NCBI GenBank assembly: GCA_018818965.1
Contig: JAHJQX010000024.1
Location: 6,105-70,104, forward strand
DNA length: 64,000 bases
From: Patescibacteria group bacterium
GTDB lineage: Bacteria; Patescibacteriota; JABMPQ01
Direction of reading: 5' to 3'
A program made the position numbers and the translations under genes. This document shows positions 351-14,888 of this stretch, in pieces. Position 1 is the first letter of the stretch; each line of letters opens with the position of its first letter. Below the pieces are notes generated by a model that saw only the letters and a program-made list of their open reading frames with translations, did no database searches and was not told the DNA's origin.

Positions 351-380
351 ACTGCGTAAATAAAAAATAATTTTAAAACC

Positions 381-827
381 ATGAAAATCTCCGAAATAAT
401 GCAAACTGACGTCATTGCTGTTGAAGCTGAAACGCCAGTCAAGGAAGTAGCCCAAAAGTTAGTCGATAATAATATCACCGGTATGCCAGTGGTAAAGGGA
501 GATGAAGTAATCGGTCTGGTAACAGAAGCTGATTTAATCATGCAAAAAGCCAAAATTCATATCCCAATGTACATCCAGCTACTTGACAGCGCCCTCTTTC
601 TGGAAGACACAGCTGAAGTGGAAGAAGATTTAAATAAAATACTAGGGATGACCGCCGAAAAGATAATGACCAACCAAGTTGTCACTATTGATGTCGATGA
701 TACGGTGGAGAATCTAGCCACCTTGATTGAAGAACATCATATCAATCCTATCCCCGTCACCGAAAAAAATAAGCTAGTTGGTATTGTCTCCCGCGCTGAC
801 ATTGTAAAATTATTAATCAGGGAATAA
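381..827 (+). CDS. CBS-domain pair protein
   Basis: 148 aa with two CBS-like repeats (…VIAVEAETPVKEVAQKL…ITGMPVV…, …VVTIDVDDTVENLATLIEEHHINPIPVT…). Confidence 0.6.
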   Translation: MKISEIMQTDVIAVEAETPVKEVAQKLVDNNITGMPVVKGDEVIGLVTEADLIMQKAKIHIPMYIQLLDSALFLEDTAEVEEDLNKILGMTAEKIMTNQVVTIDVDDTVENLATLIEEHHINPIPVTEKNKLVGIVSRADIVKLLIRE

Positions 828-837
828 ATCACTCACC

Positions 838-1680
838 ATGAAGTTCGGTGCTCATGTTTCCATCGCTGGTGGCATCGACCAAGCCCCCGCCCGAGCGCAC
901 ATTCTCGGTTGTGAATGCTTTCAAATTTTCTCTCGCTCTCCACGTGGAGGCCAGCCTCTTGCATTGACAGCTAAGTTGATCAAACAATTTAAAGCGGAGT
1001 GTAAAAAATATAAGTTGACTGCTTACTATATTCACACTCCTTATTTTATTAATTACGGATCCAACAATCAACGCATTTATCATGGTTCCGTTTCGGTTGT
1101 CCGTCAGGAGCTTGAGCGGGGAACACAAATTGGCGCCCAATATGTAATAACTCACCTGGGTTCAGCCAAAGATCTTGGCTTAGAAAAAACTTTGACCCAA
1201 ACAATTAAAGGTATTAATAAAACTCTCGCTGGATATAAAGGTAAGACTAAACTTTTAATCGAAACAGCTGCCGGAGCGGGTAAAATAATCGGCGACTCGT
1301 TTGGAGATGTTGCCCATATTTTAAAAAACACACCGCGGAGTGTCGGAGTTTGTTTCGATACCGCGCACGCTTTTGCTTCTGGCTATGATTTGCGAATAGC
1401 GGCTAGTGTTAAAAAAACATTGGCCGAATTTGATCAAACAATCGGGCTAGCGAAGCTAAAATTACTGCACGGCAACGACTCACAAGTGGATCTCAATGCC
1501 CGGATTGACCGTCACGAGCACGTTGGTAAAGGCAAAATAGGGCGAGCAGGGTTTGCTGCCATCACTAAAAACAGTAAGTTGCGCGAGATCAACATGATTG
1601 TGGAAACTCCGGCTGGAGAAGGTAAGGTTGATTCTCGGATTAAAGATATTAAACTACTAAAAGGATGGCGAAAAGGATGA
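838..1680 (+). CDS. nfo: Endonuclease IV (AP endonuclease family 2)
   Basis: 280 aa. Nfo-like motifs FGAHVSIAGG, HTPYFINYGS, ETAAGAG and CFDTAHAFASGYD. SD-like ACTCACC precedes the ATG. Confidence 0.8.
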   Translation: MKFGAHVSIAGGIDQAPARAHILGCECFQIFSRSPRGGQPLALTAKLIKQFKAECKKYKLTAYYIHTPYFINYGSNNQRIYHGSVSVVRQELERGTQIGAQYVITHLGSAKDLGLEKTLTQTIKGINKTLAGYKGKTKLLIETAAGAGKIIGDSFGDVAHILKNTPRSVGVCFDTAHAFASGYDLRIAASVKKTLAEFDQTIGLAKLKLLHGNDSQVDLNARIDRHEHVGKGKIGRAGFAAITKNSKLREINMIVETPAGEGKVDSRIKDIKLLKGWRKG

Positions 1681-2462
1681 ATGATGAAAAAAACCCAACC
1701 CAGCCTCAATTATCAAGCTCAGCCAAACTTCATGCCCGAGAGCATTTTTATGAACACGACTCTGCTCTAGCTAAAATAAAAGCTATTTTCCCGCAGACAG
1801 ATAAAAAGCTGAGGATCTTGGATGTCGGCTGTGGGGATGGAAGATTGGTCGTCGCTTTAATCGAGCAAGGACACACTGTAACCGGCTTGGATATCAATGA
1901 AACAGCAATCGACCAAGCTAAGAAAAGAGGGCTAACAGCAATAAAAGCAGATCTCGAAAGTCCTTGGCCAGTTGATTCTTCTCAATACGATATTATTTTG
2001 ATGTTGGACGTCTTAGAACACGTAGTTGACCAAAACCACCTGTTGGCAGAAAGTCGACGGGTTCTGAAAGCTAACGGGTGTCTGATCATCGCTTATCCCA
2101 ACCACTTTGACATCCGTAACCGACTAAAAATGCTACTGGGCGGCGGTATTGTTCACTGGTCTCATACCAAACACGAAAACGCCAATGCGCCTGATTATTC
2201 CCACTTGCGATTTCTCAGATTTGAGGATCTGATACAGCTGATAAAAAATCACGGCTTCGCTACTGAACAATTGCAATTTAACTTTATGGGTGGCGGTATC
2301 ATTCCCCGTCGCTTGTTACCTTCATCGGTCAGGAAATGGCTACTCAGACGGTATCCAAACCTCCTCTCCGGCAAATTTATCTTGCGGGTGGTAAAAGCAG
2401 ATGGAAAAGATCTAATCCAAGAAAAAACTGTCTTGCTTGATAAGACAGTGGCGGGGATTTAA
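1665..2462 (+). CDS. Class I SAM-dependent methyltransferase
   Basis: SAM-binding motif I LDVGCGDGRL and post-I acidic residue. Overlaps nfo by 16 nt; an alternative start is MNDEK at 1677. Confidence 0.6.
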   Translation: MAKRMNDEKNPTQPQLSSSAKLHAREHFYEHDSALAKIKAIFPQTDKKLRILDVGCGDGRLVVALIEQGHTVTGLDINETAIDQAKKRGLTAIKADLESPWPVDSSQYDIILMLDVLEHVVDQNHLLAESRRVLKANGCLIIAYPNHFDIRNRLKMLLGGGIVHWSHTKHENANAPDYSHLRFLRFEDLIQLIKNHGFATEQLQFNFMGGGIIPRRLLPSSVRKWLLRRYPNLLSGKFILRVVKADGKDLIQEKTVLLDKTVAGI

Positions 2463-2501
2463 ATAAGTAGATATTTTAGATGGTAAATTATTTAAAAATT
2501 T

Positions 2502-3476
2502 ATGCGCCAAAAATATTCTCGCCAACAAATTGAACAAGCCCTAATCCCCTACCAGGTTGGCACAATCAATGAAGCCAAGCTTTTTACTACTGGCATTGAT
2601 AATACCAATATCTATATTAACTCTGATCAAGGTGAAGGTGTGCTTAAAATATATGAAATGTATACTGCCGACAATATAGCCTGCACCCAATTCGAGCTCT
2701 CACTAATGAACAAAGTCAACCAGGGCGGACTACCCGTCCCCCAAGCATACAAAACAGTTGATGGCAATTTTACTTCTCAATCGGGAAATAAACCAGTAGC
2801 TTATATCTCTTTTCTACCTGGAGAAAATATTTATCAGCAACAAATTCCAATTTCCTTAATTAAAGAAATCGGGCAAACTGCAGCCGAATTAGATAAGTGC
2901 TTGCAAAATTTTCAACCCCAGGGTCAAGAACGCTTGGAGTATGATTGGGACGCTAAAAATTTTCTCAAAACAAAGAAATTTCTTCCTCAGCTTGATAAAT
3001 TAGATATCGATCATCAGACAATCAGGGCAGTTTACTCCGAATATCAGGAAATCATTCGGCCAGCTTTAATGAAGTGTCGACGAGGCTATATTCATAATGA
3101 TATAGCAGCTCATAATATTTTAGCTAACAATGATAAACTAACAGCCGTGTTGGATTTCGGTGATGCGGTTTATTCTTATTGGGTATGTGAAATTGCCGTC
3201 ATGATTGTCCAATTATGCATGTATCAGACTGATTGGAAAAACGCTACTGCAGAATTACTCAGTGCCTATCAGGCTGTGATACCTCTTAACAAATCAGAAA
3301 AAGATACCCTGTATTATTTAGCTAAATGTCGCGCTGCCACCATGATTGTCGTTTGCAACAGCTTGTATTATACTGATTCTACTCATAATGACCTAGGAGA
3401 ATTTAGAGATGCTGGGCTAGATTACCTGGATAAGTTAATTAAATTGGGAAAAGAGAATTTTAACTCGTTAATATGA
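2502..3476 (+). CDS. Aminoglycoside/choline/homoserine-kinase-type phosphotransferase (APH family)
   Basis: Brenner motif HNDIAAHNIL and DFGD motif (LDFGDAVYSY). 324 aa. Confidence 0.6.
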   Translation: MRQKYSRQQIEQALIPYQVGTINEAKLFTTGIDNTNIYINSDQGEGVLKIYEMYTADNIACTQFELSLMNKVNQGGLPVPQAYKTVDGNFTSQSGNKPVAYISFLPGENIYQQQIPISLIKEIGQTAAELDKCLQNFQPQGQERLEYDWDAKNFLKTKKFLPQLDKLDIDHQTIRAVYSEYQEIIRPALMKCRRGYIHNDIAAHNILANNDKLTAVLDFGDAVYSYWVCEIAVMIVQLCMYQTDWKNATAELLSAYQAVIPLNKSEKDTLYYLAKCRAATMIVVCNSLYYTDSTHNDLGEFRDAGLDYLDKLIKLGKENFNSLI

Positions 3477-4381
3477 ATGGGGAACGGCCGGAACAAGGCG
3501 ACATAGCCAGAGAACAATCAGAAACCATCACTAGCTTGCGTGACCTCCGCAGTGATTTTCATATGCATACATTGACTAGCCGAGAGGCAGGTGATCCCCG
3601 TGGCACATATACTATGGAGGAACTAGCTGGGTATATTGAAGATCACGTTGGTATTAAAGAAGGTGAAAAGCCTGGGGTTGAATACATTTCTATTACTGAC
3701 CACGCCACCAATGATACGGTCGTGCCCCAAGGACCAGAAGAAAAAGTAGATCAGAGAATTCTAGCGCAAAAAGTAGAAATCGACCGCCTAAATGAGAGCG
3801 GCAAATTTCCTGGCCTAACTGTATTAGCCGGAACGGAGACAGCTTTATCACCAGAGGGTGTTCCAGACGTTAGTAACCATGTTCTTGAGCAGTTAGACGT
3901 GGTAGTAGCTTCAATCCACGAACCACCTGATTTGTCAGGCGAAGAAAGAATGGCAGCATATCGCCAAGCAGTGGAAAATCCCTATATTGATATTTTAGGA
4001 CATCCTTTTGGCGCTACCTGGTGGGGAAAAAGTCACGACTGGTTATCGGAAGAACAGTCGCAGGAGTTGATTGATCTAGCAATAGAGCACGACAAGGCCA
4101 TTGAAATAAATGTTGCTCAACTAGACCATTATCCTTCCACCCTACTACAAATTATAGCGGCTAGTGGAGTCAAGGTGTCTATGGGTACCGATACCCACGA
4201 CAACCCGCAGATCAAAGATCAAAAACCATTGGGTGTCAGCGGCTGGAGGCCTTATGCTAGAACAGCTAGAGCTATAGGAAAAGCAGGAATCAAAAAAGAA
4301 AACATCCTCAACACTTATTCTCTGGCAGAATATCGGGCTTGGCGCCAAACTAGGATCGAAAGATTTACTTCGCCTGCATAA
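3473..4381 (+). CDS. PHP-domain metal-dependent phosphoesterase
   Basis: FHMHT, TDHA, IHEP and GTDTH motifs typical of the PHP family. The 4-nt ATGA overlap with the upstream gene suggests translational coupling. Confidence 0.6.
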   Translation: MNGERPEQGDIAREQSETITSLRDLRSDFHMHTLTSREAGDPRGTYTMEELAGYIEDHVGIKEGEKPGVEYISITDHATNDTVVPQGPEEKVDQRILAQKVEIDRLNESGKFPGLTVLAGTETALSPEGVPDVSNHVLEQLDVVVASIHEPPDLSGEERMAAYRQAVENPYIDILGHPFGATWWGKSHDWLSEEQSQELIDLAIEHDKAIEINVAQLDHYPSTLLQIIAASGVKVSMGTDTHDNPQIKDQKPLGVSGWRPYARTARAIGKAGIKKENILNTYSLAEYRAWRQTRIERFTSPA

Positions 4382-4390
4382 TAAAATACT

Positions 4391-5185
4391 ATGTTCAAAA
4401 AATTTCTTATCAAAACAGTCAAAGATGCTAGTAAGATACTACTAAAAGACTACGGCAAGCTTCGACACCAGGATATCCAGCGCAAAACCAATCTCGAGTT
4501 GGTTACTAAAACTGATCTCAAATCAGAGCATTTTATTATTAAGCAAATTGAGAAAAAATTTCCTGGCCACAGCATCCTCAGTGAAGAAAAAGGCCTGATC
4601 GACAAAAAATCCGATTTTCTCTGGTTGATCGACCCGCTCGATGGTACTAATAATTTCATTATGAGCAACCCTCTCTTTGCCGTAACCATCTCCTTGGCTT
4701 ACAAGGGCGAAGTAGTAGCCGGTGTTGGTTATGCTCCCCGTCTCAAAGAACTCTATTTTACCGAAAAGGGACAGGGAGCTTACCTTAACGGCAAAAGAAT
4801 AAAGGTGTCCAAAGAAAACAAGCTAAGAGAATCCATCCTGCTTTTTTGCCACGGGCATAAGAAGAGAGACTACCAAGAAGTAACCCGCATCTATACTGCT
4901 TTTAAGCTGCGCTGCCGAAGTTTGCGTCAGCTCGGCTCGGCTCTACTTGAATTAGGCTTTGTCGCCGCCGGGCGCTGCGAGAGCCTGATGATTGACGGGC
5001 TGACTACTTGGGACCTAGCCACTGGTGTCTTGCTGGTAAAAGAAGCAGGCGGGAAAGTAACTGATTTTCACGGTCAAGAGTGGAATCTAAAAAGCACTAG
5101 TATCGTTGCCACCAACGGTAAAATTCATAACAAGCTGTTGCCGACTTTGAAAAAATTATCGAAACAATATGGCAAACCTGAATAA
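4391..5185 (+). CDS. suhB: Inositol monophosphatase family protein (SuhB-like)
   Basis: Signature WLIDPLDGTNNF and the metal-binding EE motif (SEEKG). Confidence 0.75.
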   Translation: MFKKFLIKTVKDASKILLKDYGKLRHQDIQRKTNLELVTKTDLKSEHFIIKQIEKKFPGHSILSEEKGLIDKKSDFLWLIDPLDGTNNFIMSNPLFAVTISLAYKGEVVAGVGYAPRLKELYFTEKGQGAYLNGKRIKVSKENKLRESILLFCHGHKKRDYQEVTRIYTAFKLRCRSLRQLGSALLELGFVAAGRCESLMIDGLTTWDLATGVLLVKEAGGKVTDFHGQEWNLKSTSIVATNGKIHNKLLPTLKKLSKQYGKPE

Positions 5186-5819
5186 AATTACTGACGAGAT
5201 TAGCCAGTGCACTTTATGTCCCCTGCATGAAAATCGCACCAACGCCGTCCCAGGAGAAGGCAATCCACGAGCTGATTTACTTTTCATCGGCGAAGGTCCG
5301 GGTAAAAAAGAGGATGAGCTAGGCCGACCCTTTGTTGGTCCAGCCGGGAAACTACTTGAGGAATTGTTGGCGACAATCGGTCTGAAACGTGAAGATGTCT
5401 TTATTGCTAACGTGGTTAAGTGCCGCCCACCCGGTAATCGTGATCCTCTGCCCGAGGAAGTCGAGGCTTGCTGGCCATATCTGCAACAGCAGGTGAATGC
5501 TGTCGACCCTAAGCTTATTATTCTTCTCGGCCGTCACTCACTCGATCGTTTCCTGCCTAATATGAAAATCTCTCAAGCACGCGGTAAACCAATGCGGCGA
5601 GAAGTAGAAAACTTGGGACGCTATGTTTTTTACCCCATTTATCACCCAGCAGCTGCTTTACATAATCCGAACAATCGCCAACCACTAATAGATGACTTTC
5701 AGAAAATCCCGGCGGTGTTGGCAGAAGTTGATAAATTGCCGGAAAAAGACGCGGCCGATGTCGAAATAGAGGATGATATAGCTGAGCCGCAGGAAAAACA
5801 GGCACGGTTGGAGTTGTAA
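5169..5819 (+). CDS. udg: Uracil-DNA glycosylase, family 4
   Basis: Motifs GEGPG..E (FIGEGPGKKEDELGRPFVGPAGKLL) and VVKCRPPGNRDP. Cys residues at CTLCP may form an Fe-S cluster. Confidence 0.75.
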   Translation: MANLNKITDEISQCTLCPLHENRTNAVPGEGNPRADLLFIGEGPGKKEDELGRPFVGPAGKLLEELLATIGLKREDVFIANVVKCRPPGNRDPLPEEVEACWPYLQQQVNAVDPKLIILLGRHSLDRFLPNMKISQARGKPMRREVENLGRYVFYPIYHPAAALHNPNNRQPLIDDFQKIPAVLAEVDKLPEKDAADVEIEDDIAEPQEKQARLEL

Positions 5820-5905
5820 GTCTGTCGATTGTAGGTTCGCCCATGACGAGCCCGTCGAACTGCAGTCCTTCAACTTCACTCAGGGAAAATCCAGAGTAAA
5901 AAAAT

Positions 5906-5937
5906 AAGCTGTAAAGGAAAGCGCTTTGCAGCTTTTT
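5906..5937. terminator. Bidirectional rho-independent terminator between udg (+) and the convergent IDH-family gene (-)
   Basis: Stem aagctgtaaag / ctttgcagctt with one G-U pair. A-run upstream and T-run downstream. Confidence 0.5.
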
Positions 5938-5953
5938 GGATCAGGAACGTTGG

Positions 5954-7141
5954 CTAGGTCGACAACTTCCCGATGATGGCGCTGGTCATCTCGGCGGTTG
6001 TGGCTGCTCCTTGCTCGATCACCTCGGGACCGCCCTTGAGGAACAGCATGTCATAGGTACACACACGGCCCTCCTTGATCACCCCGCCAATGGCCTCGTA
6101 AATGCGCTGGGCCATCTCCCGCTCCTCCAAATGAGTCAGCATCATGGCCGCCGAGAGGATCATCGCGCACGGGTTGACGATGGGCGGATCCAGCTCCGCG
6201 TATTTGGGCGCACTGCCGTGGGTGGGCTCGAACACCGCCACGTCCTGGCCGATGTTGGCGCTGGCGGCAAAGCCCAGACCGCCAATCAAGCCAGCGAAGC
6301 CATCGGAGCCGATGTCACCGAACATGTTGCTGGCGACGATCACGCCGTATTCAGCGGGGTTTTTGGTCAACCACATCATCTGGGCATCGATGTTGGTCTC
6401 CCAGAGCGCGATCCCAGGGAAGTCCTTCGCTACGACCTTGGCCACCTCGCGGAACATGCCACCAGTGGCTCGCATGACGTTGGGCTTCTCGCAGAGGGTG
6501 ACGGACTTGTAGCCGAACTTCTGCGCGTACTTGAAGGCAGCGCGCAGAATCCGCTCGCAAGCCGCTCGGGTGAAGATACGACAGGTGATCGCCAGCTCCT
6601 CGCCCGGCACTCCCTCGAAGGACTTGAACTTCGGGTGCGTACTGAACGCCCTGCGCACCTGCTCCGGCGGATCCGTCCACTCGACGCCGCAATATAGTCC
6701 CTCAGTATTTTGCCGAAAAACGACCACGTCGATTTCCGGTTCGAGGATCTTTTCATCCGATCCTCGCTGAACAAAGTTGAGCGGGTTACCGGGGAAAGTA
6801 CGGCAGGGACGGATGCAGACATCCAGATTGAACTCTCGCCGCAGGCCAACGATGGGACTGTAATACTGGAGACCCCGGTCCTGCAGCTCCGGTGCCAGCT
6901 CGGCCGCCGCCTCTGCCTGCGGCTTGGAGGTGATGGCGCCGAAAAGACCGACCTTGTGCTGGCGCAACAACTTGAGGGTACGATCAGGTAGCGGGTTGCC
7001 CTCGGTGCACCAGTGGCGCCAACCGATGTCGGCAAACACGTACTCGGCATCAAATCTAACCGCCTGGAGGACTCGTATAGCCTCCGCCAACACGATTTTT
7101 CCAATCCCGTCCCCCGGCATGAGTACAATTGTCCTGGTCAT
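5954..7141 (-). CDS. Isocitrate/isopropylmalate dehydrogenase family protein, within a GC-rich segment
   Basis: 395 aa. N-terminal LMPGDGIGKIV, NTEGLYCG and SNMFGDIGSD…GGLGFAASANIG motifs of beta-decarboxylating dehydrogenases. Codon usage is visibly GC3-rich, unlike the flanking genes. Confidence 0.75.
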   Translation of the reverse strand: MTRTIVLMPGDGIGKIVLAEAIRVLQAVRFDAEYVFADIGWRHWCTEGNPLPDRTLKLLRQHKVGLFGAITSKPQAEAAAELAPELQDRGLQYYSPIVGLRREFNLDVCIRPCRTFPGNPLNFVQRGSDEKILEPEIDVVVFRQNTEGLYCGVEWTDPPEQVRRAFSTHPKFKSFEGVPGEELAITCRIFTRAACERILRAAFKYAQKFGYKSVTLCEKPNVMRATGGMFREVAKVVAKDFPGIALWETNIDAQMMWLTKNPAEYGVIVASNMFGDIGSDGFAGLIGGLGFAASANIGQDVAVFEPTHGSAPKYAELDPPIVNPCAMILSAAMMLTHLEEREMAQRIYEAIGGVIKEGRVCTYDMLFLKGGPEVIEQGAATTAEMTSAIIGKLST

Positions 7142-7428
7142 GTAACTCTCCCTTTTGAAGATCCAGACAAAAACAGAGCGACCCCATGCCGCTCCTTACT
7201 AGTCGTTGGTTAGTAATTTAGCATGCTGGCGGAGAAAGTAAAGAATTTCTTGCTATTATACATGAAAAAAGCAGTAAACCTTGACATCTAATAGCTTATA
7301 TGATAGCCTGAGACAGTTTATAATCAAATCGAAAAAAGAAATTAGGCTGGAAGTTTTCTGGTTTGTAACTTTTTTTGAACGCCCGTGTGGCAGACGGGTA
7401 TAACCACCGAACGAGGGAGGAACACGAT

Positions 7429-7629
7429 ATGGTTAACTGGAGACAGAAGTGCGAGGCGTTGGAGAGAAAATATAAGGAACTGGAGCGAACTAGCGCCCTC
7501 TGGGTCGCGGCCAACAACGCCAAAGACGGGCGGATCAAGGAACTGGAGAGTGAACTCGAGAGGCTCAGGCGGCGAGTGGCCACACTCTCGCGACAACGCT
7601 CCTTGAAAAGAGCTGCCCAGGGAGGTTAA
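7429..7629 (+). CDS. Small coiled-coil protein (66 aa), GC-rich
   Basis: MVNWRQKCEALERKYKELER…ELESELERLRRR heptad-rich. Strong SD GAGGGAGG sits 8 nt upstream of the ATG at 7429. The ORF track starts it at 7375. Confidence 0.3.
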   Translation: MVNWRQKCEALERKYKELERTSALWVAANNAKDGRIKELESELERLRRRVATLSRQRSLKRAAQGG

Positions 7630-7632
7630 CCC

Positions 7633-7854
7633 ATGGCCATCTCCTGGCGAGAACACTGTCGGATCGCAGCGGAGGAACGCCTGGATCCTCGTCGTGACTT
7701 CAGCGAAGTCCGGCGACGGGCTGCACTGCGGGCGGTGGCTAATCGCCCCCAACGACGTCCACCGGTGATGATTCCTCCACCGGTAACGGTCACCGCACCA
7801 ATCCGACGTCAGCTCCTTCTTCCCGGTATCTTCCGCACCCAACACCGCCTCTAG
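7633..7854 (+). CDS. Arg/Pro-rich small ORF (73 aa), possibly non-coding
   Basis: Open frame in GC-rich DNA, where chance ORFs are common. No recognisable domain. Confidence 0.12.
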   Translation: MAISWREHCRIAAEERLDPRRDFSEVRRRAALRAVANRPQRRPPVMIPPPVTVTAPIRRQLLLPGIFRTQHRL

Positions 7855-7936
7855 CAACTAAAGAGACGGTTTTTTTATACAAAAAACTGCCCAGGGCAAA
7901 ACAGAGCAGCTAACAATAAACTATTAAAGGATAGAT

Positions 7937-8422
7937 TTACTCGTCCTCTTTCAATTTGATCACCACCTGCCGCTCCGGTTCCTCACCATAGCTGATAGTC
8001 ACTAAATCTTCTTCATCCGCTAGAAAAGTATGAACCACGCGCCGGTCGTAGGCTGGCATCGGGCGCAATATTTCTTTCTCTTTCGTACGACGGACATTGA
8101 GAGCCGCGCTGCGAGCAATACTACGCAAGCTGTCTTCTTTATCTCGTCGGTAGTTATTGACGTCAATTATAAATGGTACTATTTCACCTTCATTTTGTTT
8201 CCGGAGAAGTAAACGCACCACGTACTGGAAGGAAAACAGATTATCACCCGCCTGACCAATCATAATCTTGGCATCGTCAGTTTTGATATTAAGTACTAAA
8301 ACTTCTCTACCTTCTCGTTCTTCCAAGCGCTCAGAAATTTGCCCCGTTACCCCCATCTTATCAATCATCTCTGTTACTATCGTTTTAAGAATGCCAATGT
8401 TTTCCATTTCTATACCAGCCAT
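7937..8422 (-). CDS. jag: Jag/KhpB-like RNA-binding protein (KH + R3H)
   Basis: 161 aa. KH-like N-terminal half and R3H-like C-terminal half (…RRVVHTFLADEEDLVTISYGEEPER…). Sits immediately downstream of yidC as in the conserved cluster. Confidence 0.8.
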   Translation of the reverse strand: MAGIEMENIGILKTIVTEMIDKMGVTGQISERLEEREGREVLVLNIKTDDAKIMIGQAGDNLFSFQYVVRLLLRKQNEGEIVPFIIDVNNYRRDKEDSLRSIARSAALNVRRTKEKEILRPMPAYDRRVVHTFLADEEDLVTISYGEEPERQVVIKLKEDE

Positions 8423-8494
8423 ATATTTAGATTATTCGCTAATAGGCGTCAGTCTATCTTAATTATACAGGCCTGACGTCTAGCAACGACCCAT

Positions 8495-9316
8495 CTACTT
8501 GGCCGGAGTAGCAGACTTTTTCCCACCAGCGCCTTTCTCTTCTTTATTTTCCGGTTTCCACCATTTGATGATTAGATATTGCTGCCCGAGGGCAAATAAG
8601 GTTGTCGTCGCCCAATAAAGAGCCAAACCAGAAGGTAAACTCATAGCGATAAAGACAGTCATTACCGGCAGAAAATAGGTCATTTGCTTGGTCATCATCG
8701 AAGACATGTCAGCCGCAATGCCCTGACCCTTAGCCGATTTCTTCTTATTAGCTCCTTTGGGCATCATCATTCGCGATTGTAAGAACTGGAATATACCAGC
8801 CAAAACTGCCAAAATCAAGTTTGGTTCTGTCATATCCACCAGATTGATAAAGAAGTGGTTAACGGTTTCTGGCTGACTAACAAAAGAATAAAGCTTGTCC
8901 ATGCTTTCTGCATTCATCCCCACTCGGAAAACTCGGTAGAGAGCAAAAATGATTGGTAATTGGACTAACATTGGCAGGCAAGAAGAGGCGGGATTGATCT
9001 TATTCTTCTTATAAAACTCCATCAGCGCCTTGGTCTGCTCTTCCTTATTATCCTTGTGCTGCTGGCGCAACTTGTTCATCTCTGGTTGAAGCTGCTGCAA
9101 AGCCCGCTGGGACTTAGTTGCTTTGACCGACAGTGGCACCAAAACAAGTCGAACCAGTATTGTTACAATAATAATAGCCACCCCGATATCTCCTACCAGA
9201 TTATAACACCAGACCATTAGATTCAGGAGAGGCTGGAATAAGATTGTGTTGTAGATTTCGTAGAACATAATATTAATTTTTCCATTTCCCCGGCTTAGGT
9301 ACCGGATCATGCCCAC
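8495..9316 (-). CDS. yidC: Membrane protein insertase YidC (short Gram-positive/CPR type)
   Basis: Multi-TM 273 aa, YidC-like hydrophobic core with a C-terminal basic tail (KKSATPAK). Synteny yidD-yidC-jag. Confidence 0.85.
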
Positions 9317-9539
9317 CGTGGCTCAAAGGATTACAGCGCAACACTCGCCACGAGGTGAGAAGACTGCCTTTGATCAATCCGTGTCGCTTGATCGCCTGGT
9401 AGCCATACTCAGAGCACGTTGGATGAAAACGACAAAAACCGTAGGGCAACACTCTCGAGAAGATCCCGTGATCCATCGACAGTGTTTTTTGATATAAACG
9501 TATTAGTAATAGAAAGGGAACGCGTATAAATTCAAACAT
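9273..9539 (-). CDS. yidD: Membrane protein insertion efficiency factor YidD
   Basis: 88 aa with a conserved Cys-rich core (…[19 protein letters not shown]…). Overlaps the yidC start. Confidence 0.75.
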
Positions 9540-9541
9540 TG

Positions 9542-9889
9542 CTATTTAACCCCTATTAGACCCGCTTGCTGCAAAACATTTTTAAAAACATTTTCAATCT
9601 CTCGATAGGTTTTATCTGTAGCTTCCGGACGCACCATCACTACCACATCAAATCCCGGCTTGATATCAGCTAGAGCTAAGCGAATCACCTCACGCAAACG
9701 ACGCTTTACTTTATTACGCACGGTTGCTTTCTTTGACACTTTTATCCCGACCAAAAAACCAAAGCGCGATTGCGGCTGATTATTTTTTAATGACTTGATC
9801 GCAATAAACTGATGTTTAAAAAAACGACCATGGCGGTGGACGCGGGCAAAGTCATTATCTTTCTGTAATCTGTTGGCTAGCGGTAACAT
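9542..9889 (-). CDS. rnpA: Ribonuclease P protein component
   Basis: 115 aa, basic, RNR-like motif (…[11 protein letters not shown]…). Located between rpmH and yidD. Confidence 0.85.
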
Positions 9890-9906
9890 ATAATAAAAAG
9901 ATCTCG

Positions 9907-10044
9907 TTAAGCTGACAACCGCTTGCGGCCTTTGGCCCGACGACTTTTCAACACACGACGACCAGATTTGGTACGCATGCGTTTACGAAAACCGTGCTCT
10001 CGTTTTCTTTTTCTTTTCTTAGGTTGATATGTTCTTTTCGGCAT
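9907..10044 (-). CDS. rpmH: 50S ribosomal protein L34
   Basis: Manually translated 45 aa: [45 protein letters not shown]. Below the ORF-track length cut-off. Confidence 0.85.
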
Positions 10045-10120
10045 AGTGGCTTTAAAAATTACAAGCCTATTCTAACAGCTTGCTTCTACTCGGTCAATAA
10101 AGAATGGGTTAATATCAACA

Positions 10121-10149
10121 TTGATTTTTGTCTCAAATTGTGTTAAAAT
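10121..10149 (+). promoter_or_regulatory. Sigma70-like promoter candidate upstream of the 10180 gene
   Basis: TTGATT, 17 nt spacer, then TGT-TAAAAT (extended -10). Confidence 0.3.
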
Positions 10150-10179
10150 GGTAACAACTGGAGAAAATAATAAAAAACG

Positions 10180-10419
10180 ATGTCATATACATACACTGGG
10201 ATTAGAAGCAAGTTCAACACTGATGAGTTTGATTTTACTTCCGAAGGATCGCAAACAAGAGCTCTGGAAGAAATTAAAGAAGTAGCCAAGGGCGGTAAAA
10301 GGGGAGTAAGGCGCACAGAATTAATAAAAATTTTACAGAGAAATATGGGTCGAGACGCAGGCAGAAAGGCTTATAATAAAATTACTGGCGGTAAATCAGG
10401 AGGTTGGTTTGGATTTTAA
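10180..10419 (+). CDS. Basic Gly-rich hypothetical protein (79 aa)
   Basis: ORF with an SD-like GGAG upstream. Shares an R-x-E-[LI]-x-K-x-x-x-[MF]G module with the next ORF. Confidence 0.35.
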   Translation: MSYTYTGIRSKFNTDEFDFTSEGSQTRALEEIKEVAKGGKRGVRRTELIKILQRNMGRDAGRKAYNKITGGKSGGWFGF

Positions 10420-10943
10420 ATAAGTTATTTAATAACTGTAAACCAATGGCACCAAGAATAACTCAAGGGGACTTATATAAAGGAGTAAAACAAGGACTCA
10501 GCGGCCACGGTGGCGCCGCTAGGAGCGGTGCTTTAAATAAATTAGGTATAAAGAAACAGGGGCAAGGTCTACGTAAAGACAAGCACGTGGGTATTATGAA
10601 AACCAAAGTTGGAGCTAATAAATATATGCGGCGAGCTGGATTGAACCGTCTTGAACGCCGAGCGATTATGAAAACTATGTTTGGCTCGGGAAAGGCCGCT
10701 AACATTAAGACTACTGGAACTGATAAATTTGCTAATAATACTCCTGGTAATGCTCCCGCCAGTGGGAAAAAGGTCGGTCTCTTCAGCCGCGGTGACAGTG
10801 CCAGTCGGGCTCGGGCTCAAATCAGCAGACAATTTGGCACTCGTCCCGGCGGGCCTGGTTTTACCAGCGATCGTTCTTCTTCAACTGGCTCTTCTGCTGG
10901 TGGCTCTTCGGGCAGAACCCGTCCAGCTGGTCCCCTATTCTAA
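10404..10943 (+). CDS. Basic Gly/Ser-rich low-complexity hypothetical protein (alternative ATG at 10446)
   Basis: 179 aa, disordered-looking, with repeated GxxxG / KxG modules. C-terminus is SSSTGSSAGGSSGRTRPAGP. No domain recognised. Confidence 0.35.
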   Translation: MVWILNKLFNNCKPMAPRITQGDLYKGVKQGLSGHGGAARSGALNKLGIKKQGQGLRKDKHVGIMKTKVGANKYMRRAGLNRLERRAIMKTMFGSGKAANIKTTGTDKFANNTPGNAPASGKKVGLFSRGDSASRARAQISRQFGTRPGGPGFTSDRSSSTGSSAGGSSGRTRPAGPLF

Positions 10944-10961
10944 ACTAACATAAATTAAAAA

Positions 10962-10988
10962 GCGAAGGGATTCCCCTCGCTTTTTTTA
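10962..10988 (+). terminator. Rho-independent terminator
   Basis: gcgaaggg-att-cccctcgc hairpin followed by T7. Confidence 0.5.
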
Positions 10989-11021
10989 TTATTCAAAAAG
11001 TAGCTGAGATCTGTTATATTA

Positions 11022-11045
11022 AGCCTGCCTACCGGTAGGCAGGCT
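11022..11045. repeat. Perfect 24-nt palindrome agcctgcctaccggtaggcaggct
   Basis: Self-complementary across its full length. Shares the core CCTACC..GGTAGG with the hairpins at 33468-33491 and 44628-44652. Confidence 0.5.
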
Positions 11046-11052
11046 CTGCCGA

Positions 11053-11139
11053 GTAATATAATGGAGAGGTGGCTGAGCGGTTGAAGGCGTCGCTCTCGAA
11101 AAGCGATAGGTTCGCAAGGGCCTCGAGGGTTCAAATCCC
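11053..11139 (+). tRNA. tRNA-Ser (anticodon CGA), type II with long variable arm
   Basis: Acceptor GGAGAGG/CCTCTCC, anticodon loop CTCGAAA, T-arm GAGGG-TTCAAAT-CCCTC, discriminator G. Near-identical layout to the E. coli tRNA-Ser(CGA) sequence as I recall it from memory. Confidence 0.9.
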
Positions 11140-11177
11140 TCCCTCTCCGGTTTTATAGACGTGGATGAATAAAATAA

Positions 11178-11396
11178 TTATAAATATACTTCTTTGCGAT
11201 GCTTTATTCGCAAAATTATTAGAATGGTAATATTCCCTTGATCATCAATATCAAATACCACCCGATAATTTCCAATCCTAAACCGATAAGTTCCTAGTCT
11301 ACTGTCTTTCAGTTTTTTGGCATGCTGCAATGGGTTGCTTTGAACAATATAGAACCGTAATTTTTCCGCTATTCTCTTTTGGATATTTTTCTCCAA
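11178..11396 (-). CDS. RelE/ParE-family type II toxin-like protein (TTG start)
   Basis: 72 aa with a RelE/ParE-like core (…LGTYRFRIGNYRVVFDIDDQGNITILII…). The ORF track used a TTG initiation codon. No antitoxin ORF of 60 aa or more is adjacent. Confidence 0.55.
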   Translation of the reverse strand: MEKNIQKRIAEKLRFYIVQSNPLQHAKKLKDSRLGTYRFRIGNYRVVFDIDDQGNITILIILRIKHRKEVYL

Positions 11397-11400
11397 TGAA

Positions 11401-11430
11401 AAACCACCAGCTTAACGCTGGTGGTTTTTC
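11401..11430. terminator. Bidirectional rho-independent terminator hairpin
   Basis: aaaCCACCAGC-ttaac-GCTGGTGGttttt, an 8-bp perfect stem flanked by A- and T-runs. Confidence 0.55.
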
Positions 11431-11444
11431 CTGTAATAAAAAAA

Positions 11445-11461
11445 GGGCGCTGATGGCGCCC
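11445..11461 (-). terminator. GC hairpin with a T-run on the minus strand
   Basis: GGGCGC-tgatg-GCGCCC. The minus strand continues with tttttttatt. Confidence 0.4.
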
Positions 11462-11599
11462 TTATAAAAATATTTATGGCGCTCAGCGCCCTCAACGTCT
11501 CACGCTATACACTGCTACCCCCCGAAGGGAGTGGCAGAGATCGTTAGTGCGAAACGTGGGCGTCTGAACAAAAATTTAATTTTGTCAAACGTTGAATGA

Positions 11600-12100
11600 T
11601 TCTCTTACCATTCGTGTGGTAGTACGAACTTATTTGGCTCGTCTTACCGATTTTTGTTTTTGTTTATTTCTCGCCGAGGCGAGATCTATAAAGAACAAGT
11701 TATAAACAGTAAGAGATCTCTATAGAAGTAGCTTACCTCTGTAGAAAACTCTTACCCTTTTTCGTAAATCCCTTAACGTTCAACTTGAACACATCATAGC
11801 ACGTTTTTTAAACACAATCAAGGCAATTTTTTCAACATCTGTGGACAAAACCGCTATTTTTTTATTGGTTTACACTAAGCCCTAAAGTAGGCATTACTTG
11901 AAAAATAAATCGCTTAACAACAACTTATCAACAGTTTTCAACAATTTTCTGAACAATACTTTTATCCAAAATTAGGAGGTAATAAGGACTTTTTGGACTG
12001 AGTACCACATCTGGTTATTTGCGCTTAAAAAAGCCTCAATCTTAAAATAACCTGACATTATAGAAATAAATCTTGGATTACTGGACAACTATCTTGAACA
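11600..12100. other. AT-rich non-coding region with DnaA-box-like 9-mers; candidate replication-origin or regulatory region
   Basis: No ORF of 60 aa or more on either strand across about 700 bp. TGTGGACAA at 11840-11848, TTATCAACA at 11925-11933 and TTATCCAAA at 11962-11970 each differ by 1 nt from TTATCCACA. Several short palindromes (tctcgccgaggcgaga, agagatctct). Confidence 0.3.
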
Positions 12101-12110
12101 AAAGGCTTGA

Positions 12111-14888
12111 TTACTTGTCCTGAAGCCATTCCCAGGCGTGAGTGACAACTTGAGCTTTAGGGCAGTATTCTACCTGAGAAGTAGGCAAATTTTTAATAAA
12201 TTCTGCCCCGTATCGGGCTGTTTCCACCCGGTTATCCAAAACGATAAACACCCCCCGATCATCAACGCTTTTTATCAATTGTTGAAAAACTTGGCGCCAT
12301 TTCAATAACGCTTCTGGCAAAGCTGATTGCTGGAAAGCATTTTGACCACCTTGGCTACGCGCCGTAGTGAGAGGATCAGAGAAAAATCCAAAGGGCAGTT
12401 TATGGATAATCAGACAGGCTAATTTTTCTGAGGGAATCTCATTTTTTAATAAAAATTCGTGGGTGACTATTAGAACAGCCTGGTCTTGGTGAAAATATTC
12501 TTGCTTAACTTTATCTTCTCCTCCCGAAATGCCTAATCCCAACACCTTGATGCTCTTTTCCTTCAAAGGCAAAGCTAAATCGGTAAATATTTTTCTGACG
12601 GCCGCTCTACTACCACAAGATATAATTGTTTTCCCTTTCAATTTTGTAGCCATACCCATAACAATTCGTTGTAGATCTTGATGAAAACCGGGCTGGTTAT
12701 GACCAACAATATCAGTGGGCACAATGACCTTGGCCTGCTGGTCATACTGGTAAGGAGCAGCAATGTCATGCTGATTATATTCCTCACCTAGCCCTAAACG
12801 CTCGCGAAAATAATCGGTGTTCGTCTGGTTATTAAAGACCGAAGAAACAAAACTAACTGAGCCCGATTTCGCTAACAAATTGCTCTGCAGAAAATCGCCC
12901 ACCTGCTGGGGTGACAGTGAGAGTTGCAAATAGTTATTGTTCAAGCTCAGCCAAGCCACCTCGTTCGCCTCCGGTTGCAATATTATTTTCTCTAGTTCCT
13001 TGGTCGTATCGTAAAGATCCTGATAAGCACCAGATAGATCACAGTGGATTTCTTGAGCTGATTTTTGCTTCAGGGAGACTAATAATTTATCAAGTTGAGC
13101 CAAAAAAGCATACATGTCTACAATATAATTCTGGCCTGCTTGCTTTACCCGATCCCATTCCGGATACTGCCGCACATCAATATCGAGAGTCAAAGTGAAA
13201 TAGTCACCCCCCACGGCTAAATCCTGTTTCTGCTGGCTAGCAAAGATGCCCAAGACACCGAAAAACAAAGTTGTCTTGTCTTTAATTTTGGTTGCTTGTC
13301 TTATCAGCGCCGCCACTTGGCTCTTAGTAACTTTCTTGAGAAGTGCTTTTCTAGGAATTAGCTGCAAGAACCCCGGATCGTGATCCAACCAAGAAAGCTT
13401 CCTGGTGATACTATTTTCACTCAGCTGGAAACTCAAATAATGGGTAAACTGCTTTTCTAACTCTTGGGCTTCGTCGAAAATTACGTTTTTTATACGCAAA
13501 GATTTTCCTTCGGCAGCTAAAGCAGTGTGATTAAATATTACTACGTCCGATTTCTGCGCTTTTTGAAAAGCATTATAGTAAAAACAATCTTGGTAGTAAG
13601 AACAATTCTTCTGCAAACAGTATTTGACGTCACAATTAACCTGCTCTTCCACCCGATAATCTTCATAGCTCCAAGCCATTTCGGTAAAAAGGCCGAATTG
13701 GGCAATGTCTAGCCAAAGTAGCAGCTTGGCTAAAGCCTCCATCTGGGCAGTCGATAGTTCTGGCTTGTTTTTGAATTGCTCGAAACGCCGTCGACACAAA
13801 TATTTCCGCCGGTCTTCTAGCAAAGCCGGGGTGAAATTGAAGGGGGTAATGTTTTGAACTATTTCCGCTTCCTCGGTAGATAATTGTTTCTGCAAAGAAA
13901 AAGGACTGACAGAAATCGCTACCGATTGGCTGGTCTTTTTCGCCTGAGCCTGATAGGCAGCAGCAACTAGATAGGCTAAATATCGACCAACCCCTGGCCC
14001 AGCGTTAATAATTGACTGTTTGCTACCCGTGAAATCTTTTACTAGCTGCTGCAACAACGCTACTTGGCTTGGTCGGAACTCATAGTTGGTGATGATTTTT
14101 TTTAGCTGCTCTTTCTTTTTAAATAGGGCTTCGATCTCTGTCAGACCTACTCTGCGCTGATCGGTCTTTTTCGGAGTGGTTTTGGGCTTAGCTATTACCT
14201 TACTCTTTTTCTCTTTCTCGCCCCGACGTGCCGATAAAACCTGTTTGAAAACAGCTGCTAACCCCCAATCATGTTTGACCGCATACCTATTAATTTCCTG
14301 CAGAACGCCATAATTTACTTCGTAGATTCTCTTAACTAGTCGCAAAAAAAGATCCTTACTAGCCAAGACATCATCTAAAGCTCGATGACTTTCGATGTGC
14401 TTGATCTTGAGATAATTTGTCAGGACTTCCAAGCTATGAGAAGACAGCTCTGGCACCAACATAGTAGCCAGCTTCCAAGTATCATAGCGAGGGTTAGTCA
14501 ATTCTACTCCTTTACCCGCCAGAAAATTAATATCAAAATTAATATTATGGCCAACGATCGGGTGCTTACCGATAAATTTAACTAAATCATCTTTGACGTC
14601 GGCAAAGGGAGGTGCTTCAACTACCTGTTTGTCCACAATACCCGTAATCGCTGAGACAATGGCCGGAATTTTACCACTCGGCTTAGTCAAAAATTGAAAC
14701 TCCGCCAATACCTTATCACCTTTGAACTTAGCAGCCGCTACTTCAATAATGTCACCGCGGTTAGGCGTGAGATCGGTGGTTTCCAGATCGAGGGCAACGC
14801 AAGTTTTGGGAAAAGTTAGTTTCATGGGTGTCATGGTAGCAGGGTTTGGAGAGGGAGACAAATAAAAAAAGCTTCTTGTTATCATCAA
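12111..14888 (-). CDS. dinG: DinG-family ATP-dependent helicase with N-terminal DnaQ-like 3'-5' exonuclease domain
   Basis: 925 aa. N-terminal DEDDh exonuclease motifs (ALDLETTDL, GHNINFDINFL, HRALDD). Helicase motifs are divergent Walker A (NAGPGVGRY), DEAQ box (IFDEAQELE), an Fe-S Cys cluster (C..C…C..C) and motif VI-like (FIVLDNR). Confidence 0.8.
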   Translation of the reverse strand: MMITRSFFYLSPSPNPATMTPMKLTFPKTCVALDLETTDLTPNRGDIIEVAAAKFKGDKVLAEFQFLTKPSGKIPAIVSAITGIVDKQVVEAPPFADVKDDLVKFIGKHPIVGHNINFDINFLAGKGVELTNPRYDTWKLATMLVPELSSHSLEVLTNYLKIKHIESHRALDDVLASKDLFLRLVKRIYEVNYGVLQEINRYAVKHDWGLAAVFKQVLSARRGEKEKKSKVIAKPKTTPKKTDQRRVGLTEIEALFKKKEQLKKIITNYEFRPSQVALLQQLVKDFTGSKQSIINAGPGVGRYLAYLVAAAYQAQAKKTSQSVAISVSPFSLQKQLSTEEAEIVQNITPFNFTPALLEDRRKYLCRRRFEQFKNKPELSTAQMEALAKLLLWLDIAQFGLFTEMAWSYEDYRVEEQVNCDVKYCLQKNCSYYQDCFYYNAFQKAQKSDVVIFNHTALAAEGKSLRIKNVIFDEAQELEKQFTHYLSFQLSENSITRKLSWLDHDPGFLQLIPRKALLKKVTKSQVAALIRQATKIKDKTTLFFGVLGIFASQQKQDLAVGGDYFTLTLDIDVRQYPEWDRVKQAGQNYIVDMYAFLAQLDKLLVSLKQKSAQEIHCDLSGAYQDLYDTTKELEKIILQPEANEVAWLSLNNNYLQLSLSPQQVGDFLQSNLLAKSGSVSFVSSVFNNQTNTDYFRERLGLGEEYNQHDIAAPYQYDQQAKVIVPTDIVGHNQPGFHQDLQRIVMGMATKLKGKTIISCGSRAAVRKIFTDLALPLKEKSIKVLGLGISGGEDKVKQEYFHQDQAVLIVTHEFLLKNEIPSEKLACLIIHKLPFGFFSDPLTTARSQGGQNAFQQSALPEALLKWRQVFQQLIKSVDDRGVFIVLDNRVETARYGAEFIKNLPTSQVEYCPKAQVVTHAWEWLQDK

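Follow-up and report, generated by a model that had tools for sequence, protein, structure and literature searches.

A foreign, probably exchangeable dehydrogenase gene in a conserved slot between the UDG and jag genes of a Parcubacteria bacterium

Bacteria of the candidate phyla radiation (CPR) are thought to live on a minimal metabolism that is patched by occasional gene transfer. How a foreign enzyme is acquired, expressed and replaced in such a genome is a question raised by a locus on contig JAHJQX010000024.1 of the Patescibacteria assembly GCA_018818965.1. The analysed stretch of 64,000 nucleotides, termed the window in the following, carries a GC-rich segment between the converging genes of a uracil-DNA glycosylase (UDG) and of the protein Jag/KhpB. 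This segment encodes an enzyme of 395 residues belonging to the isocitrate/isopropylmalate dehydrogenase (Iso_dh) superfamily, which we refer to as the dehydrogenase, and two small open reading frames (ORFs) on the opposite strand, sA and sB (Table 1). In an initial annotation, the region was described as a 2-kb foreign segment that was either acquired recently by horizontal transfer or joined to the contig by a chimeric assembly. We find that the linkage is real and that the sequence of the gene places its origin outside of the CPR, and we consider it probable that the site constitutes a slot with an exchangeable foreign Iso_dh coding sequence, which has arisen in the common ancestor of the window organism and a sister species.

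The claim of an island rich in GC, also at third codon positions (GC3), is borne out by quantitative analysis. The GC content amounts to 0.59-0.61 over positions 5950-7150, compared to about 0.42 for the remainder of the window, and a second GC-rich block (0.57-0.67 over 7450-7850) is separated from the first by an AT-rich trough (0.30-0.39 at 7200-7400). With a GC3 of 0.77, the ORF of the dehydrogenase (5954..7141, minus strand) is about 5.9 standard deviations away from the 54 other ORFs of the window (0.408 ± 0.062, maximum 0.59), and the interval 6001-7200 is the top tetranucleotide outlier in a scan with 1.2-kb segments (z 6.2), so the deviation is strong and the composition of the window far from uniform. 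The tetranucleotide distance of the gene is 0.023-0.037 to high-GC non-CPR loci, compared to 0.055 to its own genome. Long overlapping ORFs in further frames, which had been pointed out as a hallmark of high-GC DNA, are present, and the gene itself is intact, with its product matching the full-length Iso_dh domain (PF00180, 265 bits versus a cutoff of 27, E 1e-78; residues 4-388 on profile positions 1-347 of 348). In contrast, the description as a single foreign segment of 2 kb does not hold in full. The GC-rich blocks are real, but the segment is a composite of the dehydrogenase coding sequence, a conserved AT-rich spacer and a GC-rich block with genes for small proteins in the opposite orientation. 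Similarly, the terminator and the promoter region that were proposed to bound the segment both exist within the boundaries given, but they are conserved parts of the host locus and not the edges of foreign DNA.

The compositional jump is abrupt and high-GC organisms with related genes occur in identical samples, both of which would fit an artefact of assembly or binning, where the gene of a high-GC organism was joined to a CPR contig; moreover, the contigs of the closest relatives (L002, L003 and L063) break at or within the site. We nevertheless reject a chimeric join because several other assemblies span the junctions and because a sister species shows the identical layout. A MEGAHIT contig from ENA is equivalent to positions 1-17141 of the window at 99.988% identity, with two single-nucleotide differences elsewhere (2782, 3218), and it reaches 4 kb past the start of the window. 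A Logan contig from a separate run covers the sequence from YidC through Jag, sB and sA to the first 185 codons of the dehydrogenase. An 82.5-kb contig of a metagenome-assembled genome (MAG) deposited in GenBank as 'Patescibacteria group bacterium' carries the exact Jag and dehydrogenase proteins (MBU1178161.1 and MBU1178159.1) with identical joins, and a 71.9-kb JGI contig encodes the identical dehydrogenase protein. Single contigs thus contain CPR sequence on both sides, a conserved AT-rich leader and ribosome-binding site directly adjoin the dehydrogenase gene, and the architecture of the sister species matches in three separate sample assemblies, which leaves an artefact with hardly any credibility. 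As a separate observation, the contigs of relatives end just past Jag or inside the dehydrogenase (L002 at 2443, L003 at 7645, L063 at 11955), which suggests that strain heterogeneity or a change of coverage at a variable site routinely fragments assemblies.

The origin of the gene is reflected in its homologues. The 120 best database matches of the dehydrogenase are proteins of about 394 residues that share 67-72% of identical residues, and every named one belongs to a non-CPR organism (Aminicenantes, Anaerolineales, Acidobacteriota, Calditrichia and Phycisphaerae). In a neighbour-joining tree, the protein is the sister to all 119 sampled members of this '394-aa SPIV/KY' clade, from which it is separated by the longest terminal branch (0.213 compared to a median of 0.068). 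It is thus nearer to proteins of non-CPR phyla than to the corresponding enzyme of the sister species (59%), in a locus where neighbouring genes of the two species are 77-89% identical. Judged from its sequence, the gene is foreign to the CPR and its clade of origin is clear. The proposed horizontal acquisition is in this way supported by composition, by non-CPR homologues, by the discord between gene tree and species tree and by a patchy presence. That the acquisition was recent is unproven, given the limited identity to the best homologue (72%), the long terminal branch and an occupied slot that is shared with the sister species and predates the split. A phylogeny of the protein had been proposed as a way to name the donor and the class of substrate: it identifies the clade and reveals no clustering with CPR homologues, but it does not provide a donor, and the substrate class follows by inference only.

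The same data bear on a vertical descent of the gene within the CPR, in which case selection, or else GC-biased gene conversion at a recombination hot spot, would have preserved its high GC content. Such a history would find some support in mosaic alleles found in the sister species (L064 and L065), which demonstrate that the locus recombines, in the GC-rich character of the fillers at the site in all four species and in the failure to find a close donor for the window gene. It would not account for the resemblance of the enzyme to more than 100 proteins of unrelated phyla (67-72%), which exceeds that to the enzyme of a sister species (59%) whose housekeeping genes in the vicinity are 77-89% identical. 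Neither would it explain the absence of the dehydrogenase from L066 and from the outgroup L067. In addition, the enzyme of the sister species nests among sequences from contigs of 65-68% GC that carry full operons, and the present gene tree contradicts both CPR monophyly and a match to the species tree. We therefore regard an ancient vertical gene as very unlikely.

Related loci were recovered via homologues of Jag and, with the window included, the site is resolved in four related species. Proceeding from Jag to UDG, the window contains sB, sA, the AT-rich spacer and the 395-aa gene of the 394-aa clade. The sister species (L064/L065), whose architecture is seen in three samples, contains a 79-aa homologue of sA, an AT-rich spacer and a gene of 381 codons, which encodes a dehydrogenase of a different clade, the 372-aa clade. 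The site of L066 is occupied by a GC-rich filler of 739 bp with an unrelated 159-aa ORF and that of L067 by a filler of 523 bp with a 71-aa ORF, and neither of them contains a dehydrogenase. The fillers (L066:2167-2894 and L067:2643-3150) have a GC content of up to 0.63, and their ORFs are unrelated and have no family assignment. A tree of four flanking proteins places the window together with L065, and L066 next to the pair of L002 and L003, with L067 as outgroup, and the dehydrogenase arrangement is confined to the pair of window and L065. In this clade, the interval that separates the converging UDG and jag transcription units is thus hypervariable and accumulates GC-rich foreign DNA, and it seems to do so in every species examined. 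The initial annotation had called a gene of this class unexpected in a CPR genome. It is indeed a foreign accessory gene that is absent from two of the four related species, but the sister species keeps an Iso_dh protein of another subfamily at the same place.

The control regions surrounding the two genes are conserved. A part of the spacer at about 7165-7236 is approximately 85-92% identical to the equivalent region of L064/L065, compared to about 64% nucleotide identity in the adjoining coding sequence. The spacers of the window and L065 have in common a ribosome-binding site (RBS AAAGGGAG(G)AGTTA), which in the window reads AAAGGGAGAG (at about 7147-7156 on the minus strand), a leader hairpin (7195-7175) followed by a U-run (7174-7165) directly upstream of the RBS, a palindrome (TTACTA-N9-TAGTAA at 7196-7216) and a TTGACA box located at 7281-7286 on the plus strand in direction of sA. 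The window spacer further contains a promoter-like sequence for the dehydrogenase on the minus strand (TTGATT-16-TATCAT at 7327-7300) and a Shine-Dalgarno sequence for sA on the plus strand (GAGGGAGG at 7413-7420). In a comparison of two distinct leader sequences, two one-sided changes between window and sister species keep the pairing of the hairpin. A core of 19 nucleotides of the spacer was found only in dehydrogenase-bearing CPR loci, and a search of Rfam gave no match for spacer or leader. Based on these features, the palindrome and the hairpin with its U-run could be a candidate operator plus attenuator. As an observation in its own right, the non-coding leader at 7165-7236 surpasses the flanking genes in its conservation between species.

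Conservation extends to both ends of this unit. The bidirectional terminator at 5891..5939, whose stem has a predicted folding energy of -14.2 kcal/mol on the plus strand (z -2.6) and of -8.5 kcal/mol on the minus strand, occurs only once in the window; it is nearly identical in L064/L065, whereas L066 lacks it and L067 gives only a faint alignment. At the opposite end, sA is preceded by a Shine-Dalgarno motif (GGGAGG) 8 nucleotides upstream of its ATG, in agreement with the gene call of Logan, and its homologue is the ORF of 79 codons that takes the identical position in the sister species (44% identity, E 1e-12). An exhaustive search recovered 29 relatives of sA in addition to a variant of 98% identity. 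They are rich in Arg and Ala, are 61-103 residues long with one exception, and share the motif ELE..C.LWIAAN.AKDERI.ELE....LR.RVARLSR followed by a basic tail. The family has no Pfam or PHROG assignment and no members in plasmids, phages or IMG/VR, and in all fetched DNA it was found only beside the dehydrogenase in CPR loci. A regulatory role of sA is speculation.

In contrast to the control regions, the coding sequences of window and L065 belong to different clades, with only 59% identity at the amino acid and 64% at the nucleotide level, and each of them extends over the full length typical of its own clade, beginning with the first codons. The enzyme of the sister species has a GC3 of 0.85-0.89, agrees with its clade at all 140 conserved columns and is 76-91% identical to proteins on non-CPR contigs of 65-68% GC. 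These contigs carry LeuC/D-like genes and several of them also Hyp genes, Ser/Thr kinases and giant tetratricopeptide repeat (TPR) proteins, and some come from identical sequencing projects as the CPR contigs. We propose that an expression slot, consisting of sA, an AT-rich divergent region with promoter, leader and RBS, a coding sequence and a bidirectional terminator, probably dates back to the last ancestor that both species share, because the occupied slot is common to both. The coding sequence derives from high-GC non-CPR bacteria and would later have been replaced in at least one lineage, presumably by recombination with DNA taken up from neighbouring cells, and the dehydrogenase would be expressed from the host-type promoter of the spacer via the conserved leader with its palindrome and terminator-like hairpin. 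A single ancestral slot with later replacement is the most economical reading of these data.

Alternatively, the ancestor may have possessed only sA, the spacer and the terminator, with each lineage inserting a different Iso_dh gene without any replacement. The affiliation of the coding sequences to different clades, each full length from the first codons, would follow directly from two independent captures, which also would circumvent a homologous replacement at 64% identity that is mechanistically hard to envisage, at a site that takes up varied foreign DNA, as manifested in four fillers in four species. This scenario requires two insertions at the same few nucleotides past an RBS that served no gene. 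In contrast, the strong conservation of leader and RBS implies a continuous service to a downstream gene, and the sA family was found in the fetched DNA only beside the dehydrogenase. We thus consider two captures to be unlikely, though the strongest competitor of a slot with later replacement. A tandem duplication followed by loss was rejected as source of the two subfamilies since both genes share RBS and leader.

Two alleles of the sister species provide a closer view on the exchange in the proposed slot. The sequences of the sibling samples L064 and L065 are 100% identical over YidC, Jag, the small ORF, the spacer and the first approximately 290 nucleotides of the dehydrogenase, then drop to 69-93% for about 700 nucleotides inside the gene and return to 100%. 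In a comparison of the genes at L064:4952-6094, L065:3816-4961 and L071:749-1873, the divergent tract of L065 is 96-98% identical at the nucleotide level to the gene of the non-CPR locus L071, which has a GC content of 67%, whereas the ends of the L065 gene are only 73-87% identical. The differences between the alleles distribute over codon positions as 18/21/56, and this excess at third positions indicates that both alleles are under purifying selection. The tract of L065 could either result from a very recent gene conversion from a high-GC neighbour or from a graph chimera in low-coverage contigs. A bolder interpretation would regard sA, the spacer with its leader and the terminator as a dedicated platform for capture and expression, into which Iso_dh sequences of high-GC neighbours are repeatedly written by recombination with environmental DNA, imported via type IV pili and competence, and refreshed faster than they drift to host composition, with sA regulating through the palindrome or the leader hairpin. 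We view such a platform as rather doubtful; if true, it would represent an integron-like function without integrase and direct evidence of ongoing gene conversion between phyla in the CPR.

Several points weigh against the proposed slot with an exchangeable foreign gene. A swap that is almost precise to the start and stop of coding sequences is hard to envisage between genes that are just 64% identical, and two occupied loci would fit both a replacement in an ancestor that already possessed a dehydrogenase and two captures. The conversion tract of L065 could be an assembly-graph chimera, as the coverage of the contigs is only 4-7x, and the donor of the window gene cannot be named because its best identity is only 72%. 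We have found no target-site duplications or inverted repeats beyond chance at the segment, no flanking mobility genes, with no recombinase within 40 kb and the nearest located at 51.5 kb. Neither sA nor the flank motifs have a match among viral contigs, phages, plasmids or IMG/VR. With neither repeats nor an integrase, nor matches in phages, plasmids and IMG/VR, a fragment of a transposon, prophage or plasmid was dismissed as source, and plasmid homologues of the dehydrogenase are at most 36% identical. Remnants of donor genes were equally rejected: a 3' remnant of 42 nucleotides in L065 matches non-CPR operons no better than shuffled sequences, and blastx and tblastx comparisons of the fillers with dehydrogenases and non-CPR loci gave scattered noise only. 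A scan of metagenomes based on Jag returned no informative close relatives.

The function of the enzyme was approached by analysis of its family, residues and predicted structure. The AlphaFold2 (AF2) model displays the characteristic two-domain fold with high confidence (predicted local distance difference test, pLDDT, 88; predicted template modelling score, pTM, 0.89), and Foldseek relates it with a probability of 1.00 to structures of isocitrate dehydrogenase (IDH), homoisocitrate dehydrogenase (HICDH) and isopropylmalate dehydrogenase at template modelling (TM) scores of 0.75-0.80, normalised to the query, and 28-34% identity. The enzyme retains 103 of 105 columns in which both subfamilies (about 240 sequences) show a conservation of at least 99%. 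These include R101, R111, R143, Y150, K219, D252, D276 and D280, which align with their equivalents in the NAD-dependent IDH of Methylococcus capsulatus (6LKY) and in Thermus HICDH, and which represent the three substrate-binding arginines, the catalytic Tyr/Lys pair and the three metal-binding aspartates of the family. Because all of these Arg, Tyr, Lys and Asp positions are kept, the dehydrogenase is predicted to be catalytically competent. Both clades share the signature YYSPIV(G/R)LRQ, with S95-P-I97 being invariant, and a HGSAPKY motif found in 119 of 120 members of each clade. The Lys-Tyr pair of the latter corresponds to the NADP-binding Lys344 and Tyr345 of the E. coli NADP-IDH, and the enzyme probably uses NADP+ as cofactor because its HGSAPKY motif resembles this NADP-dependent protein.

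A comparison with characterised family members defines similarities and differences. The fold is shared with HICDH of Thermus thermophilus (1X0L, 3ASJ, 4YB4; TM scores 0.76/0.90, 34% identity), which, with the archaeal AksF/LEU3_arch group, counts among its nearest known counterparts. The GA(I/A)TS motif, the Tyr/Lys pair and all of the substrate arginines and aspartates (three of each) align with Thermus HICDH, and non-CPR relatives of the window gene adjoin homoaconitase-type genes. In contrast, the window enzyme lacks a homoaconitase partner in the CPR genome and is about 50-60 residues longer, with insertions at approximately 73-92 and 118-182, it contains HGSAPKY in place of the NAD-type HGSAPDI, and its Val98 aligns with Arg85, the specificity residue of Thermus HICDH. 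The best match in the PDB in both sequence and fold is the IDH of M. capsulatus (195 bits, TM scores 0.77/0.89), and the catalytic residues are conserved also with respect to other bacterial IDHs such as the E. coli NADP-IDH (e.g. 1AI2), but the identity to these proteins is only 28-34% and an Ile (Ile97) replaces an Asn. In E. coli IDH, this Asn115 binds the γ-carboxylate of isocitrate. The positions of 6LKY that align with S95-P-I97 are S-V-N, so the Ser-x-Asn motif of IDHs is absent.

Among the curated models of NCBIfam, the best scores were obtained for AksF2 (266 bits compared to a cutoff of 540) and AksF (246 versus 500), with LEU3_arch also ranking among the best. Assignments as classical IDH (NF006529, 229 versus 510; TIGR00183, 178 versus 567), as LeuB (TIGR00169, 172.5 versus 353; NF002898, 226 versus 393) and as tartrate or D-malate dehydrogenase (TIGR02089, 190 versus 470) were rejected, and even as HICDH equivalog the protein is not accepted, since AksF2 and AksF, despite ranking best, remain well under threshold.

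Genomic partners of non-CPR relatives offer a further clue. In two of the three non-CPR contexts examined, the gene of the 394-aa clade is followed by that of a 658-aa protein, which in the one scored context (L060) passes the homoaconitase equivalog model TIGR00139 (796 bits versus 530). Genes of the 372-aa clade are embedded among LeuC/LeuD-like subunits that pass the models hacA_fam (homoaconitate hydratase) and IPMI_arch (isopropylmalate isomerase). Together, the rank of AksF2, the HGSAPKY motif and these homoaconitase-type neighbours point to an NADP-linked oxidative decarboxylase of a 3-substituted malate of the homoisocitrate/isocitrate type as candidate substrate class. Such an enzyme would convert a 3-substituted (2R,3S)-malate to a 2-oxoacid, CO2 and NADPH. 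Since the window does not contain an aconitase-family partner, nor does such a gene adjoin the dehydrogenase in the loci of the sister species, the substrate would have to be supplied from outside of the cell or from a host organism. This assignment is opposed by the absence of an aconitase-type neighbour in one of the three contexts of the 394-aa clade, by scores below every NCBIfam equivalog cutoff, by the Ile found at the position of Asn115 and by the structure comparison in Foldseek, which does not separate IDH, HICDH and isopropylmalate dehydrogenases. The window enzyme also departs from its own clade at 8 of the 165 columns with a conservation of at least 97% there, including Q102R and E225A, compared to a median of 0 and a maximum of 7 in the 119 sampled members, and some relaxation or functional drift is thus possible.

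This deviation, which exceeds that of any clade member, together with the longest terminal branch in the tree, the lack of an aconitase- or homoaconitase-type pathway partner in the window and the absence of the dehydrogenase from two relatives, would also be compatible with a non-functional passenger, a piece of stray foreign DNA that reached fixation through drift in a neutral stretch flanked by convergent terminators and that is unexpressed or useless and decaying. We consider this improbable, as the ORF of 395 codons is intact, although GC-rich DNA quickly gains stop codons in an AT-biased genome. Moreover, all catalytic and metal-binding residues are kept, the AF2 model is confident, and conservation across species includes the promoter, the leader, the RBS and the terminator. 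The sister species in turn has retained a comparable enzyme, and the differences between its alleles are mainly synonymous.

The scattered occurrence of a foreign metabolic gene in a reduced genome is not without precedent. Xenologous gene displacement in situ, as reportedly described by Omelchenko and colleagues in 2003, means that a distant homologue takes the place of a gene at the identical operon position. The locus described here is similar, as position, flanks and regulatory DNA of window and sister species match and the coding sequence derives from another lineage of the superfamily; it differs in that the displaced unit is an accessory foreign gene instead of a core operon member, that the breakpoints are located within a few codons of the ends of the coding sequence and that one allele of the sister contains a fresh internal tract that is 96-98% identical to a non-CPR gene. 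On a broader scale, CPR bacteria are known to have acquired metabolic genes laterally, with examples including glycolytic enzymes, NiFe hydrogenases and RuBisCO (Jaffe et al. 2020, PMC7304191). The dehydrogenase shares with these cases its nature as sparse metabolic gene in a reduced genome, the discord between gene and species trees and non-CPR nearest relatives, but its composition is still fully donor-like, and the insertion site, a relative with an empty site and a xenologue of the sister species in the same slot are directly visible. The main text of PMC7304191 does not mention isocitrate or the tricarboxylic acid (TCA) cycle, and a search of the literature on this enzyme class in CPR found nothing relevant.

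The protein itself is already deposited under a generic name and gene transfer of metabolic enzymes in CPR is known. New is the resolved history of the site, a conserved slot containing xenologues of two uncharacterised Iso_dh clades, the sA family and a possible live conversion tract between phyla. The transfer becomes visible at the resolution of a single locus, with an empty site, an occupied site, a sister species with a different foreign gene behind the same control DNA and a tract in one allele that is nearly identical to a non-CPR gene. It thus offers a concrete case of how CPR bacteria may acquire and express foreign enzymes and of which neighbours donate DNA. It also bears on the role of a lone NADP-type hydroxyacid dehydrogenase in an organism without TCA cycle, which could supply NADPH or 2-oxoacids from scavenged substrates. 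Finally, it draws attention to two large uncharacterised SPIV/KY clades of the isocitrate/isopropylmalate dehydrogenase superfamily, whose linkage to homoaconitase-type genes extends over many phyla and whose annotation is inconsistent.

Table 1. Organisation of the locus between the UDG and jag genes (positions refer to the window).
Feature	Position	Strand	Remarks
UDG, family-4 uracil-DNA glycosylase	5169..5819	+	Pfam UDG, E 9e-37; GC3 0.44; host flank converging on dehydrogenase
Bidirectional intrinsic terminator of UDG and dehydrogenase	5891..5939	both	stem 5906-5934, 11 bp; A7 run before, T5 run after
Dehydrogenase, 395 aa, Iso_dh family, '394-aa SPIV/KY' clade	5954..7141	-	GenBank MBU1178159.1
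AT-rich divergent regulatory spacer	7142..7428	both	GC 0.30-0.39; promoter/terminator scan, alignment with sister species
sA, 66-aa coiled-coil protein with basic tail	7429..7629	+	divergent from dehydrogenase
sB, possible 73-aa Arg/Pro-rich ORF	7633..7854	+	coding status uncertain
Intrinsic terminator of sA/sB unit	7844..7877	+	stem CCGC.CTCT/AGAG.CGG, then T7; -8.2 kcal/mol, z -2.7
Terminator of host jag/khpB operon	7877..7910	-	terminator scan and fold; conserved in L002 and L003
Jag/KhpB, host flank	7937..8422	-	Pfam R3H and KH_KhpA-B; last gene of rpmH-rnpA-yidD-yidC-jag cluster

The second small ORF of the segment, sB, follows a GGGAGG Shine-Dalgarno motif located 7 nucleotides upstream of its ATG and was called by the Logan gene caller. 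It has no family match and only weak similarity to the 71-aa ORF of L067 (E 0.025), and its GC1 exceeds its GC3, which is atypical of a coding sequence. A hairpin and T-run comparable to the terminator of the sA/sB unit are found in the tail of L003. The gene calls of this region disagree, with the ENA record listing a 171-aa ORF at 7342-7857 on the minus strand and the Logan record sA and sB on the plus strand. We favour the plus-strand calls because sA is conserved; the 171-aa ORF, which has no family and runs antisense to sA, is probably spurious. A structured RNA at 7380-7860 was rejected because homologues of sA were found; a search of Rfam gave nothing at gathering thresholds and hits at chance level at E up to 10, and the z-score of the fold is -1.6.

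The genes surrounding the segment are of housekeeping type, including UDG, inositol monophosphatase, jag, yidC, yidD, rnpA and rpmH. The UDG is 83-87% identical at the amino acid level in related CPR species, YidC is 78-80% identical to proteins from MAGs of 'Parcubacteria group bacterium' and Jag is identical to the deposited Patescibacteria protein mentioned above. The gene content of the window is typical for CPR, with type IV pilus genes, glycolytic enzymes, DisA, RNase Y and PNPase, and its 64 kb contain no TCA-cycle genes, neither aconitase nor citrate synthase. By its sequence, the host is a Parcubacteria (CPR/Patescibacteria) bacterium.

Other parts of the window show further features. 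A tyrosine recombinase of the Phage_integrase family (XerC/D-like) and, next to it, a 308-aa ORF without Pfam match are encoded at 51497-53446, in the sole other kilobase with a GC content of about 0.50, and the highest GC3 outside of the studied segment (0.59) belongs to a 122-aa ORF at 57272-57640 on the plus strand, also without match in Pfam. On the minus strand, a surface-type protein of 1252 residues with SdrD_B, DUF11 and Ig-like domains is encoded at 22151-25909 and two tandem DUF3352 paralogues of 620 and 558 residues at 44700-48242. A type IV pilus cluster at 35705-44296, which is of relevance for DNA uptake, comprises a PilB-like ATPase, PilC, a large pseudopilin with N-methylation motif, PilM and PilN. 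Beside the tRNA-Ser(CGA), two small ORFs overlap at 10180-10943 on the plus strand, one of 79 residues that is 87% conserved in the sister species and the other of 179 residues, which is rich in Gly, Arg and Ser and just 42-53% conserved.

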